Shown here one piece after another: positions 37,212 to 41,360 of a stretch of 64,000 nt of DNA (the stretch's first letter is position 1; each line of letters begins with the position of its first letter). A program made the translations under genes and the position numbers. The notes beneath the pieces were generated by a model. The model saw only the letters and a list, made by a program, of their open reading frames with translations. It was not told the origin of the DNA and did not search any database. Origin of the DNA: Escherichia phage AV115; the sequence record OR352945.1. One strand, 5' to 3'.

Positions 37212-37383
37212 TTAACCATTCAATTGCCTGGTCGACGTTATCAAATATACCGCCGTCCAAACGTTCTTCACGCTCATAGTCCATCACATCAATACCGAAC
37301 TGTCCATTTACTAAAGGCCAGGCTACAAACAAATATTCTTTATGATGTTCGATGGCCTCAATCACTTCATATAATCGTTTCAT
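37192..37383 (-). CDS. hypothetical protein
   Basis: 63 aa ORF directly downstream of pseT. Confidence 0.4.
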   Translation of the reverse strand: MKRLYEVIEAIEHHKEYLFVAWPLVNGQFGIDVMDYEREERLDGGIFDNVDQAIEWLNENYVR

Positions 37384-38282
37384 TAAAAATCACCATGGTT
37401 AACTTGCCAACATTCTAAACCAATACGACGCCACATTTCAACTACTTGAGTACGGTCATCAACGGCCAATTTAACATCATATTGCGGGGCGATGTGTTTC
37501 CAGAAAATTTCTTCTTTAACCACATCGTCTTTACGGGTATCGCCTTGAACACGTTGGATATGCAAATTAAATGGAATATCGTTTTGTAAAAGCCACTCAC
37601 GTGTCATAACATAATATTTTAACCTAGCATTTTCGGTGCCAGATTCACGACCGCTTACAGTAATAATTGTATACCCGGCCTGATGAAGCATCTTAACATA
37701 TTCGACAACCATAGGGTTTGGCTCATCTGTAGACAGTTTATCTAATTCGTATGGGCCACGAGATGTATGAATAGCTAGCGTTCCGTCAAGGTCAAATATT
37801 ACCGCTTTTGGTTTTCCTGGAGTTCCTTTATAAACCGCCAGGCCAAGATAGGCCCGCATATGACCATACATGGAACGCAGAACGTCAATTGGTACTGCTT
37901 TTGAACCACGACGGCTGTTGCGCTTAACGAGTTCGGTCCATGGAACATCGAACACTTGATATACAATTTCATGGCCCCACTGCTTAGCATATTCTTCCCA
38001 TGCCAGACGACGTTCAGGATTTAAGTTGGTGTCAGAAATAATAACACCCTTAGTTCCATCTTGACAGAGAATCATATGTGCTGCATCGTGTTGCATATAA
38101 GTTACGATACTTTCTTTCTTTTTAGTATATTTGTACTCGTCACGTTCTTCGTGACCCATGATGGATTGACGATAATCGTCGCGGTTGATATTAAAGAACC
38201 CAGGATTCTTAGCAATAAATTCACGAGCCCAAGTGCTTTTACCAGACCCAGGACAACCTACAGTCAAAATAATCTTTTTCAC
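37383..38282 (-). CDS. pseT: polynucleotide 5'-kinase/3'-phosphatase
   Basis: 299 aa; near-identical to T4 Pnk ([10 protein letters not shown]-loop, DLDGTLA phosphatase motif). Confidence 0.97.
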
Positions 38283-38470
38283 AGTTTTACTACCTCTTCA
38301 GCAAATTCAAATTGTCCACCAAGAATTTTAGCAATTTCACGTCCTAGTTCAGCACCTTTCTTGCAATCTTGCATAGTCCAAGAATCGCCATTCTGTGATT
38401 TACGAAGAGCCCGTGTATTGATATCTGCTACAAGCGTATGGATTAACTTATCGATTTTGGCTTGGTCCAT
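38279..38470 (-). CDS. hypothetical protein
   Basis: 63 aa ORF. Confidence 0.4.
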
Positions 38471-38769
38471 TATTTTATTCCTAAGAAAGTTTCAAGAATA
38501 CGAATGTTATGCTCGCGCCGGTCTTTATTAATTTCAGCAACGTTTTTATTGATTGACGTACTTCTAACGTTTGAAGAAATAAATTTAATCATATGACTTT
38601 TGAGTTGTTGCAAATCCAACCCTTTTTCTTTAGCAGCTTTACGAAGAGCTTTACCTGCTTCATCTAGTGCCTTTGCTGCATCTTTGTCATAATCGACAAG
38701 TGACATTCCACGGCAGATATCAATATACTCATCAGACCGTTTGATGTAATTCTCTAGTAATGTTTTCAT
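38470..38769 (-). CDS. hypothetical protein
   Basis: 99 aa ORF. Confidence 0.4.
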   Translation of the reverse strand: MKTLLENYIKRSDEYIDICRGMSLVDYDKDAAKALDEAGKALRKAAKEKGLDLQQLKSHMIKFISSNVRSTSINKNVAEINKDRREHNIRILETFLGIK

Positions 38770-38826
38770 TTAGATTTCCTCAATTATCCATAGGAGCATT
38801 ATACTCTGCTCCCGAGAGTTTGTAAA

Positions 38827-39051
38827 CTATTTTACTAAAGATTCAATATACTCATGAAGAGCTTTAGTAGCTACTGCCCACTTATTCTGATATTCATTTT
38901 TCAGATTAGCACGAGACTGAACTAACAAGCGGTCATTAGTCGGAGGCAAAGATTCTAATCGTTGAATCTGGCGCCCATAAATCATAGCCGCCATTTCAGA
39001 TTCATAGATAAGCCCTTTAATGTATTCATGCTGTTCTTTAGTCATTGGCAT
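38827..39051 (-). CDS. hypothetical protein
   Basis: 74 aa ORF. Confidence 0.4.
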   Translation of the reverse strand: MPMTKEQHEYIKGLIYESEMAAMIYGRQIQRLESLPPTNDRLLVQSRANLKNEYQNKWAVATKALHEYIESLVK

Positions 39052-39332
39052 TTTTCCTCTTTTAAACCACTACGATAATAACATAACATAGTCTTCTGGT
39101 CATGTACATATCTTTTTATGTCGTTTAACCAGATACGAAATTCTTGAGAGTCTTCAAATGGCATTCCAACCCATGGATTACCATCAATAACCTTTACTTG
39201 CCATTTCTGGTTATATTCAGCAATAGATTCAGGCCATGGCGGATGTAAAGTTTCTTTAGGGCTTAAGGGCACATCCTGGGCACATCCAGCCAAAATGCCA
39301 ATAGATAATACAACTGCGGTTAATTTAATCAT
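39042..39332 (-). CDS. pseT.2: outer-membrane spanin (lipoprotein)
   Basis: 96 aa; signal peptide with lipobox ILAGC, Pro-rich; overlaps upstream partner. Confidence 0.65.
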   Translation of the reverse strand: MIKLTAVVLSIGILAGCAQDVPLSPKETLHPPWPESIAEYNQKWQVKVIDGNPWVGMPFEDSQEFRIWLNDIKRYVHDQKTMLCYYRSGLKEEKCQ

Positions 39333-39685
39333 TCTGAGAGCTTCCTGAGGTCTTCTGCAAAGGAATCGAAGGACCTGTTGATTTGTTTTTCGACCAATCC
39401 TGGCTTACTTGCCACCACGTTCTTCTTCTTCGAATCCTGACGGAGCTTTTCATTTTCGGCCTTAAGTTGGTCAACTAAAACACGGTTCTTATAAGTCATT
39501 TCTTCGATTGACTGATATTGAACCTTGAAGTCGTCTAATACTTTAGCATTGTTTTTAGCGGTCTCTTTGACAGAAGCTAATTCAGTATTCAACGAATCAA
39601 CTTTGTTGTTTAAGACCACTATTGTTACCGTAGAAACTAGAGCAAAAGCTGCTACTATAGCATAAATCGGATTTACTTTAAGCAT
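39329..39685 (-). CDS. pseT.3: inner-membrane spanin
   Basis: 118 aa; N-terminal TM helix (IYAIVAAFALVSTVTIVVL) then coiled-coil. Confidence 0.65.
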   Translation of the reverse strand: MLKVNPIYAIVAAFALVSTVTIVVLNNKVDSLNTELASVKETAKNNAKVLDDFKVQYQSIEEMTYKNRVLVDQLKAENEKLRQDSKKKNVVASKPGLVEKQINRSFDSFAEDLRKLSE

Positions 39686-40173
39686 GTTTTAATAATCTCA
39701 ATGATTTCATCTCGGGATAAACCATTAATAAGAACGGTTTTCAAACCATCACACTGGACTTTGTATGATTCAAACAATACACACAACTCTTCTGCTGTAT
39801 GATATGGACTTGAAATTCCAAGGCGGTTGAATTTGTCGGTAAGAGGGTCGCAAATGATGTAGAATTTTATACCTGCGATATGTACGTTTGGTTGACTAAT
39901 ATTAATGAACACATTAGCGTCGTATTTAGTCAAATTGTTTTGAAGAAATTCTACCATGGCATTAACTGCTTCCGGCATCGCTTCGCGTTTCTCTTCAGCG
40001 TATCGGGTGGAATACTCTTTTTGTTTTACTTTCTTTTTAAGATTTTTGGCCAGTGTAACACGTAGGTCAGTAAGATAACCAACTGGACGTCCTTTCTTAA
40101 AGACCCGGATTCCGTCAGTTGTATCTCCAAAAGCGGTTACGACCATATCGTTAGTAATCAATTGCATATTCAT
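39673..40173 (-). CDS. alc: Alc-like protein (host transcription elongation inhibitor)
   Basis: Position between rnlA and spanins as T4 alc; start moved from 40236 to ATG 40173 (SD GAGGAG, 166 aa) because early promoter lies inside the longer ORF. Confidence 0.5.
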   Translation of the reverse strand: MNMQLITNDMVVTAFGDTTDGIRVFKKGRPVGYLTDLRVTLAKNLKKKVKQKEYSTRYAEEKREAMPEAVNAMVEFLQNNLTKYDANVFINISQPNVHIAGIKFYIICDPLTDKFNRLGISSPYHTAEELCVLFESYKVQCDGLKTVLINGLSRDEIIEIIKTCLK

Positions 40174-40203
40174 AATTTTCTCCTCTGGTTGTTGATAAAA
40201 GCC

Positions 40204-40233
40204 ATAGTAACACCTTCCTTGGTGTTTGTAAAC
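40204..40233 (-). promoter_or_regulatory. early sigma70-type promoter (alc)
   Basis: GTTTAC-N18-TACTATGGC on minus strand upstream of SD GAGGAG / ATG 40173. Confidence 0.55.
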
Positions 40234-40235
40234 CA

Positions 40236-41360
40236 TTAATATCCTTCAGGGATGAAATTTTTATGATTTTTAATAAAGACCGATTCTAGAGCAGGCATCA
40301 TTTGCTCTTTTGAACCACCTTGGTAAAGATTCATAATGATGCCAAATAGCCAAGGCGACTGTGCGCCCTTACAAATGGCCTGGGCTTCTATAGCATATGT
40401 TTTACGATCTTTTCCTTTGTGTTTGTCGTATGCGTCTAGGCAGATATAAAATGATCGGTCTAAGAAATCGAGATAGGCCTTTTCGAAGAGCTCAACCTTT
40501 TTAAATGAAAACTCGTCATCCGCATACATTGCTTTAAGGTCGTCTGAAGCACCGTTCATAATAGCAAGAAACAACTTTTCCGGGCTAGAGATTGAGTCCC
40601 GAGTTGTATGAAGAGCAACGTACCAGTCGGTCTTCAATTTGAAATGAGAACCGTCTTTCATTACGGCTACATATCCTTCGATATTTGTAGAAGACTTAAC
40701 ACCTGGGACCCAGTCACCTTCCGGTGCTTCAAATCTGTCTACAAGATATTTACGAAAAACAGGGTCTAAATAAATGTCGTCATACTCGATATATTTGCCG
40801 GTATTGTTATCTCGAATGTTCAAAAGAATCAATCGTTTTTCTGGATATGTTAGAACAATTTTATTTGATGGGGCAACGTATTCAAAGTTCGCAGTAAAAC
40901 CGTCATTACAAAGTTCTAATAAACGATCTGCTAAGTCTTTGTGGTTAATATCTAGTAAAATACTTGTAGCGGAAGCGGCTTGGTCGGATTTGATAGACCC
41001 TTTAGATTTGAAACGAACCATATTGCCGTCAAGGTATGTCGAGACTAATGAACCGTCTTCTTTAGTCATCAGATATTTTACATCGCTAAGGTCAATTGAC
41101 AATGTAAACGGGTTCTCATTTAGATTAAAGAATTTTTCCATTGGACGAGAAGCAATACGTACAGGAGTTTCGCCATCCATTTCGAACATAATACCGCGAC
41201 ACTCTAACGCGTCGGGCAATAACCAATCTGAATACGAAGCAAAGTTATATGAGAAAATTCGATACTTTTTACCGATTGGACTTACATCATCCGAGTAGAA
41301 AAATTTACGATCAGATGACGATTTACACAGAGATAACAGATTATAATAAAGCTTTTCCAT
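40236..41360 (-). CDS. rnlA: RNA ligase 1
   Basis: 374 aa; strong similarity to T4 gp63/Rnl1. Confidence 0.95.

Follow-up and report, generated by a model that had tools for sequence, protein, structure and literature searches.

A Mosigvirus form of the T-even tRNA-repair locus with a mosaic pseT in Escherichia phage AV115

The locus considered here corresponds to that of the tRNA-repair pair of bacteriophage T4, in which polynucleotide kinase/phosphatase (Pnkp, encoded by pseT) heals and RNA ligase 1 (Rnl1, encoded by rnlA or gene 63) seals tRNA-Lys, undoing its cleavage by PrrC (PMC3014915; PMC3592404). The T4 pair has been characterised experimentally, and in its locus (NC_000866, 134002-137464) only alc and the small genes pseT.1, pseT.2 and pseT.3 lie between pseT and rnlA. 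For RB69, the open reading frames (ORFs) that are absent from T4 have been catalogued as a class (PMC1524935). Here we describe the corresponding block, at 37383-41360 on the minus strand, in a 64,000-nucleotide (64-kb) stretch of Escherichia phage AV115 (OR352945.1), which is called the window throughout. The bacterial Pnkp1–Rnl–Hen1 system (PDB 4xrp) follows the same healing-and-sealing logic and has a homologous phosphatase domain (E 2.8e-40 over PseT residues 156-299); however, it forms cellular multi-protein complexes with a Hen1 methyltransferase, whereas the window has two separate phage enzymes and no Hen1.

The window phage is a Mosigvirus, RB69-like and not T4-like. Among GenBank phages, the best megablast matches of 37100-41500 are AV118 (98.2%) and RB69 (95.4%), each over 100% of the query, while T4-type phages align piecewise only, at ~74-76% identity. 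This bears on each comparison that an earlier note on this DNA, drawn from the sequence alone, had made with T4. The minus-strand order across the block is rnlA–alc–Rz–Rz1–pseT.1–ORF231c–ORF230c–pseT, and the corresponding region of RB69 (NC_004928, 135229-139206; RB69p229-p236) agrees in gene content, order and orientation, with RB69ORF230c and RB69ORF231c among its eight genes. All of the eight RB69 proteins but PseT (86%) are 97-100% identical to those of the window, and the RB69 and AV118 annotations agree with the block at every gene. T4 shares the flanking order denA, rnlA, alc, pseT.3, pseT.2, pseT.1 and pseT. As such, the block is very probably the normal Mosigvirus version of a T-even order, denA–rnlA–alc–Rz–Rz1–variable slot–pseT, which is kept in all 14 of the IMG/VR loci recovered. 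The block, both enzymes and both ORFs beyond T4 are already annotated in RB69 and more than 100 related genomes, and are in this sense already known.

The two repair enzymes

The two enzyme genes lie at the ends of the block:

37383..38282, minus strand: pseT, bifunctional polynucleotide 5'-kinase / 3'-phosphatase (Pnkp), 299 amino acids (aa), GTG start; matched by phrog_505, PF25109, AAA_33 and 1ltq
40236..41360, minus strand: rnlA (gene 63), RNA ligase 1, 374 aa; matched by phrog_562, PF09511, PF20819 and 2c5u

Both frames are uninterrupted over 299 and 374 aa, which bears out the earlier statement that the two genes are intact. PseT matches phrog_505 (E 2.9e-124), and its two domains, AAA_33 at residues 5-145 (E 5e-23) and PF25109 HAD_PNKP at 158-299 (E 2.8e-58), give it the two-domain architecture of Pnkp. 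Its residues 1-299 align with 1-301 of the T4 Pnkp crystal structure (PDB 1ltq, E 4.3e-149). The Mosigvirus gene starts with GTG and that of T4 with ATG. Aligned with T4 PseT and twelve further T-even orthologues, the window PseT keeps all of the kinase residues (the P-loop GCPGSGKST with K15 and S16, then D35, R38 and R126), on a list that we take, in part, to be that of the T4 Pnkp mutational literature. The phosphatase residues are likewise all kept, namely D165 and D167 of the DLDGT motif (DxDxT), R176, S211 and R213 of SGR, D254, K258, and D277 and D278. In T4 Pnkp the P-loop is defined as GxxGxGKS, D165 is the nucleophile and D167 the acid-base residue, and roles have also been described for S211, K258 and D278 (PMC3592404).

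RnlA matches phrog_562 (E 4.3e-147), PF09511 RNA_lig_T4_1 (E 5e-23) and, over residues 254-374, PF20819 T4_Rnl1_C (E 7e-41), and it aligns over its full length (residues 1-374) with PDB 2c5u (E 4.1e-172). Aligned with T4 RnlA and six further T-even orthologues, it keeps all of the nucleotidyltransferase residues (K99, D101 and G102 of the KxDG motif, K119, E159, E227, G228, K240 and K242) as well as the Rnl1-specific N-terminal R54, K75 and F77, the list being one that we presume to reflect the Rnl1 mutational literature. Frameshifts or lost motifs, which the earlier note had named as evidence that would speak against it, were not found in either gene, and every catalytic residue examined is present.

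PseT and RnlA are thus predicted to be intact orthologues of T4 Pnkp and Rnl1. Since both are full length, carry the catalytic residues and match the T4 structures, the proposal that they form a tRNA-repair pair holds, as a reading by homology with the T4 enzymes. By orthology, PseT would heal the ends of PrrC-cut tRNA-Lys and RnlA would reseal the break. Furthermore, PseT probably also aids the decay of RegB-cut early mRNA, and RnlA probably retains the gene-63 role in tail-fibre attachment. A transposon-sequencing preprint placed a Tequatrovirus PseT orthologue among the genes that showed the most significant depletion on clinical E. coli isolates, and found the N-terminal domain of T4 rnlA intolerant of insertions (10.1101/2025.11.20.689424), results that are consistent with a conditional counter-defence role.

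Protein identities of the window to T4 and RB69 are as follows:

PseT: 74.6% to T4, 86.0% to RB69
RnlA: 67.6% to T4, 99.2% to RB69
PseT.1: 77.8% to T4, 100% to RB69
PseT.2: 69.8% to T4, 96.9% to RB69
Alc: 53.0% to T4, 99.4% to RB69
PseT.3: 42.7% to T4, 99.2% to RB69

RnlA is therefore more diverged from T4 than PseT (67.6 vs 74.6%), as had been noted, but PseT is not "very close" to its T4 counterpart. Within RnlA, the C-domain is 61% and the ligase domain 70.5% identical to T4. Against RB69 and AV118 the ranking flips, with RnlA 99-100% identical and PseT just 86% identical to RB69, because the window carries a different allele over PseT residues ~97-280.

Mosaicism of pseT

The divergent part of pseT comprises a patch and, within it, one exchangeable segment:

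37440..37990, minus strand: pseT mosaic patch, PseT residues ~97-280, recognised by difference counts against RB69 and by diversity in 11 Mosigviruses
37539..37634, minus strand: pseT codons 217-248, an exchangeable phosphatase-domain segment between S211/R213 and K258, recognised by segment-wise nucleotide (nt) identity

Within-genus nucleotide diversity (π) was taken from 11 aligned Mosigvirus genomes. The core of pseT (37400-37990) is a hot spot, with π of 0.08-0.165, whereas the segment at 38190-39190, which holds ORF230c, ORF231c, pseT.1 and the start of Rz1, has the lowest diversity of the region (0.01-0.02). Variation within the genus lies in pseT, not in the filler between the enzyme genes. 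The patch differs from RB69 at 20-34 positions per 100 nt, over a background of 0-3, and has a mean synonymous divergence (dS) of 0.52 with a ratio of nonsynonymous to synonymous divergence (dN/dS) of 0.16. A high dS together with this ratio points to old alleles under purifying selection, imported by recombination, and not to recent adaptive change. Positive selection in pseT is not claimed, as both the gene-wide and the patch-wide dN/dS are below 1.

The two parts of the gene have different affinities. Codons 1-96 are of Mosigvirus type, with 97% nt identity to RB69, while codons 217-248 are 51.0% identical to RB69, 58.3% to T4 and 92.7% to the Tequatrovirus BF15. Over these codons there are three deep classes, each of which spans genera: one with the window, AV118 and BF15, one with RB69 and most Mosigviruses, and one with T4, wV7 and the group of the IMG/VR locus L009. 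The pseT of BF15 is itself mosaic, with a T4-like kinase half and a phosphatase allele of the window type. The patch allele of the window is rare, with only 7 phage records at least 95% identical to it, and only 29 records align to 80% or more of the length of the 264-nt stretch formed by codons 161-248. These are AV109, AV114, AV116, AV118 and SQ17, 215Ecol030PP, and ~20 others, PP01- or BF15-like where identified, at ~88-90% identity. The window pseT is thus a recombinant, with a Mosigvirus-type kinase N-terminus and an imported minority allele over much of the phosphatase domain. Beyond the small clade of AV109, AV114, AV116, AV118 and SQ17, this allele has its closest relatives in PP01/BF15-like Tequatroviruses, and the mosaic is consistent with ordinary homologous exchange during co-infection by T-even phages.

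Comparison with close relatives also shows how the two enzyme genes travel. Counted pairwise, the differences give clean mosaic breakpoints: the window has none from AV109 over 36990-39189, and none from AV118 over 38590-42186 (2 in total over 38190-42186). AV109, which has the pseT allele of the window, carries the alternative rnlA allele. The pseT and rnlA alleles hence assort independently, and the two genes are not passed on together as a co-adapted module. Throughout the genus rnlA is bi-allelic (40390-41190, minus strand), with a 561-nt probe matching 39 records at 95% or more and 106 at 80-90%, and the two alleles encode proteins ~5% apart (94.7-94.9% identical). The window shares its rnlA allele with RB69, AV118, PhAPEC2 and Shf125875.

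A second mosaic patch is found in cd.3 (36690-36990, minus strand), where π reaches 0.185, dS is ~1.0 and dN/dS is 0.09. There the window agrees with RB69, Shf125875 and G2469 and differs by 19-28% from AV118, AV109 and AV116. The 3' part of nrdB also varies. Because neighbouring genes show similar patches, the pseT polymorphism is treated here as ordinary T-even mosaicism. The sole point that is mildly new is that the phosphatase domain of PseT is polymorphic in a segment-like manner across genera.

The small genes upstream of pseT and the alternatives weighed

Six genes lie between pseT and rnlA: alc, Rz (pseT.3), Rz1 (pseT.2), pseT.1, an ORF231c-like gene and an ORF230c-like gene. They are functionally unrelated, with Alc acting in host transcription shut-off, the two spanins in lysis, and the remainder being small early ORFs. 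The part nearest pseT, together with the promoter-like sites of the wider region, comprises:

38279..38470, minus strand: RB69ORF230c-like gene, 63 aa, predicted helical hairpin; phrog_8683, E 2e-42
38470..38769, minus strand: RB69ORF231c / RB32ORF217c-like gene, 99 aa, predicted four-helix protein; phrog_2364, E 3e-49
38798..38826, minus strand: promoter-like TTTACA-17-TATAAT in the gap between pseT.1 and ORF231c; 11/12 consensus, conserved
38827..39045, minus strand: pseT.1 orthologue, 72 aa (74 aa if the upstream ATG at 39051 is used); phrog_2347, E 8e-38
40204..40232, minus strand: promoter-like TTTACA-17-TACTAT, rnlA–alc gap; found by scanning, conserved in 11 Mosigviruses
41387..41415, minus strand: promoter-like TTTACA-17-TACAAT with a preceding TG, denA–rnlA gap; found by scanning, conserved in 11 Mosigviruses

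The statement that there are two more small ORFs here than in T4 was correct, as T4 has just pseT.1, pseT.2 and pseT.3; the accompanying count of "five small ORFs plus spanins and alc" fits only if the two spanins are included among the five. T4 lacks ORF231c and ORF230c, with no remnant or other trace of either. ORF230c is 100% identical to RB69ORF230c, and ORF231c is 97-99% identical to its RB69 counterpart (97% across the full 99 aa; the RB69 annotation starts later, giving 78 aa, but the complete 99-aa frame also exists in RB69). Both are present in all 10 of the other Mosigvirus loci aligned. By tblastn, 148 phage records hold ORF230c at an identity of at least 95%, as many as carry a Mosigvirus-type rnlA. 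ORF231c has homologues in 708 phage records, ~460 of them at 60-80% identity, and those examined in this range are the Tequatroviruses wV7, AugustSocin and BF15, with the gene between pseT.1 and pseT. The two ORFs are genus-typical genes, not strain cargo.

An ORF231c-type gene adjoins pseT in most Tequatroviruses. In wV7, RB32, AugustSocin and BF15 it is of the RB32ORF217c type (~68% identical) and stands between pseT.1 and pseT, but ORF230c is missing and pseT.1 overlaps the ORF231c homologue, so that the promoter-bearing gap of the window is absent from this common Tequatrovirus arrangement. The ORF231c type is also next to pseT in other genera among the IMG/VR loci. With no trace of either ORF, it is T4 that is the odd one out, and the earlier comparison needs correcting accordingly: T4 is atypical here in lacking an ORF that most of its relatives carry. 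The Rz1–pseT slot differs from genus to genus, both in length (~225 nt in T4, up to ~1490 nt) and in its set of small ORFs, of which T4 has one, most Tequatroviruses have two and Mosigvirus has three. As such, the notion of a variable filler applies between genera and to this slot only, and does not apply within Mosigvirus. In the IMG/VR loci L008-L020, the slot was also seen to contain many short helical ORFs with similar endings (…ELYKELGV, …LVK) and a recurrent ORF of ~160-172 aa, which suggests that the slot holds families of related small proteins turning over.

Outside the immediate relatives the two ORFs differ in reach. A search with ORF231c recovered T-even phage proteins only, while searches with ORF230c recovered 8 clusters, and 4 representatives in a library of 1.8 billion proteins. 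ORF230c homologues that are ~53% identical occur in Klebsiella Jiaodavirus phages, next to motA in KPV15, and in Serratia jumbo phages an ORF230c-like sequence makes up the C-terminal portion of a 158-aa protein. Neither Pnkp nor ligase was found near these homologues in KPV15 and Serratia phage Haymo. In another T-even group (locus L015), an ORF230c-like gene abuts pseT. AlphaFold2 models, of adequate confidence, give a generic four-helix bundle for ORF231c and a two-helix hairpin for ORF230c, with predicted local distance difference test (pLDDT) scores of 78 and 84, respectively. Foldseek searches of the PDB with both models returned only matches with E of 0.5 or more, mostly designed helical proteins; Pfam gave sub-threshold noise only and PADLOC nothing. 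Both PHROG families (phrog_2364 and phrog_8683) are without assigned function, and no paper found names pseT.1, RB69ORF230c, RB69ORF231c or RB32ORF217c. The label "putative homing endonuclease" given to the ORF231c type in Basel phage records is unsupported.

Both ORFs are under purifying selection (dN/dS 0.13-0.22, at very low dS). They share a 12-nt direct repeat, gctcttcgtaaa, which encodes ALRK and lies at 38638-38649 in ORF231c and 38399-38410 in ORF230c on the minus strand. In P0036, an 83-aa database protein from a 56-kb contig, residues 1-44 of ORF231c and 25-63 of ORF230c are fused in frame, the join running across gctcttcgtaaa. Furthermore, in the 162-kb T-even contig L020 (IMGVR_UViG_2706796796_000001, 6934-7302) the ORF231c homologue ahead of pseT is broken into parts of 77 and 37 aa, which looks like a frameshift or pseudogene. 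This natural fusion-deletion and this frameshift suggest that the two ORFs may be dispensable in some settings. As a best guess, both are ordinary early accessory proteins of T-even phages.

The 57-nt gap between pseT.1 and ORF231c contains TTTACA-17-TATAAT, the best site of a 5-kb scan, followed by a GAGGA ribosome-binding site and an ATG. Downstream, the ORF231c stop and ORF230c start overlap as TAATG, and the ORF230c stop and the pseT GTG start as GTGA. ORF231c, ORF230c and pseT thus appear to be expressed together from a conserved early-type promoter-like site, with overlapping stop and start codons. Similar GTTTACA-type sites stand in the denA–rnlA and rnlA–alc gaps. Across the 11 Mosigviruses the hexamers are conserved in the three gaps, being invariant between pseT.1 and ORF231c and having one variable -35 position between denA and rnlA. 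In addition, the gaps at 38765-38832, 40170-40240 and 41357-41420 (minus strand) combine GTTTACA…TAnnAT with a short inverted repeat that lies between the hexamers or spans them (examples are ACACC-AAGGAA-GGTGT and CCACA-AGGAT-TGTGG), and these too are conserved in 11 Mosigviruses.

Several points weigh against reading the block as a normal Mosigvirus locus with an active repair pair and a neutrally mosaic pseT. The function of the enzymes in this phage is argued from homology only, and stp, which encodes the PrrC-triggering peptide, had no credible match in the 64-kb window (best E 0.07) with a query that may be inexact, the gene possibly lying outside; its position in T4 would presumably fall beyond the window. 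Between the classes of codons 217-248, the ratio of nonsynonymous to synonymous polymorphism (pN/pS) of ~0.5-0.6 could exceed what neutral mosaicism would give, with pS saturated. Moreover, promoter-like matches in the region (14) are not above chance (15.6 in shuffles), and because of this the promoter call is based on position, strength and conservation. The alternative that a variable filler with strain-specific cargo separates pseT from rnlA, as the earlier note had suggested, could draw on the two ORFs beyond T4 and on the range of slot lengths and contents between genera. It is hardly credible, and refuted at the level of strains, given that both ORFs are annotated in RB69 at 100% and 97% identity, occur in every Mosigvirus locus examined, lie within the least diverse segment and, for ORF230c, are as numerous in the records as Mosigvirus-type rnlA.

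Another alternative is a role for ORF231c and ORF230c, as co-transcribed and translationally coupled genes, as partners of PseT, tuning, targeting or protecting the repair enzyme, or in countering a further host defence. In Mosigvirus, Tequatrovirus and two or more further T-even groups, a gene of the ORF231c type directly precedes pseT, in L015 the ORF230c-like gene abuts pseT, and the purifying selection, the overlapping codons and the strong conserved promoter-like site just upstream would all suit such a role. However, T4 lacks both ORFs and yet its Pnkp is the textbook functional enzyme (PMC3592404), ORF230c homologues sit by motA in KPV15 or among unrelated ORFs in a Serratia jumbo phage, the P0036 fusion and the L020 frameshift occur naturally, no match in Pfam, PADLOC or PDB folds was found, and adjacency in T-even phages often reflects shared early timing only; we consider the idea improbable. 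It is also unlikely, in our view, that the PseT phosphatase classes (residues ~170-186 and 217-248), rather than being neutral mosaicism, persist because host factors impose diversifying or balancing selection on them; such factors could be different RNA-damaging nucleases or inhibitors contacting that surface of PseT. The three classes do differ at 18-20 of 32 residues while each is well conserved across genera, their pN/pS of 0.5-0.6 compares with 0.04-0.15 in the kinase N-terminus, the catalytic residues are all fixed, and PseT is conditionally important on clinical isolates; on the other hand, pN/pS is below 1 with pS saturated, similar patches occur in genes with no known role in conflict (cd.3, with π up to 0.185, rnlA and the 3' part of nrdB), and codons 217-248 may encode a tolerant surface or an oligomer interface. 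We would give little credence to the two ideas joined, in which host factors keep ancient PseT classes circulating and the ORF231c–ORF230c–pseT unit adds counter-defence or Pnkp-modulating accessories. If true, pseT would be a polymorphic arms-race locus instead of a housekeeping repair gene. Ordinary mosaicism in a normal Mosigvirus block remains the preferred reading, and the cross-genus phosphatase classes, together with the importance of PseT on clinical isolates, offer a lead to the question of whether pseT is a host-range determinant in therapeutic T-even phages.

Spanins, alc and neighbouring features

The other genes between the slot and rnlA are:

39042..39332, minus strand: pseT.2, Rz1-type outer-membrane spanin (o-spanin), 96 aa, N-terminal lipobox LAGC; phrog_812 Rz-like spanin, E 6e-43
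39329..39685, minus strand: pseT.3, Rz-type inner-membrane spanin (i-spanin), 118 aa, N-terminal membrane helix then coiled coil; phrog_739, E 5e-34
39673..40173, minus strand: alc, inhibitor of host transcription, 166 aa from MNMQ; PF17527 ALC, E 1.6e-42

The spanin genes have the two-component, separated architecture, being adjacent with a 4-nt overlap and not embedded, and the architecture of T4 pseT.3/pseT.2 has been described (PMC6139136). As read from the window, the o-spanin carries its lipobox near the N-terminus in MIKLTAVVLSIGILAGCAQD, and the hydrophobic N-terminus of the i-spanin is IYAIVAAFALVSTVTIVVL. The ALC family match is full length, covering Alc residues 1-163. The open frame of alc continues upstream to 40236, but the PHROG and Pfam alignments begin at residue 22 of this long frame, and the extension contains a 1-nt indel in AV109 as well as a promoter-like site; it is probably not translated.

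Two plus-strand ORFs were considered and rejected as spurious: 40774-41298, which stops interrupt in RB69 and T4, and 38061-38531, whose conservation is no greater than the sense genes impose. Rfam at gathering thresholds returned nothing over 34000-45000, and ARAGORN found zero tRNA genes in the 64-kb window.

Outside the block, the window differs from RB69 in two further features, a DAHP synthase (3-deoxy-D-arabino-heptulosonate 7-phosphate synthase) gene and an nrdB intron, both of which RB69 lacks. The former, at 35294-36286 on the minus strand, encodes a 330-aa class I enzyme (AroG/F/H-like) between cd and a cd.2-like ORF; between 35297 and 36392 the alignment with RB69 is interrupted. 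The synthase gene, which belongs to the aromatic amino-acid pathway, is present in most Mosigviruses, with annotated copies in AV118, AV109, PhAPEC2, Shf125875, ATK47, mogra and S143_2. The two parts of nrdB, 42946-43623 and 41853-42332, are separated by an insert of ~610 nt (42333-42945, minus strand), which has a sub-threshold Rfam match to the group I intron family RF00028 (35.9 bits, E 2e-7, 42407-42644). Within the insert, a 101-aa ORF at 42492-42797 is annotated in relatives as a homing endonuclease, comparable to the T4 nrdB intron and I-TevIII. The nrdB gene is uninterrupted in RB69, PhAPEC2 and ATK47, and in G2469 the endonuclease ORF is longer.

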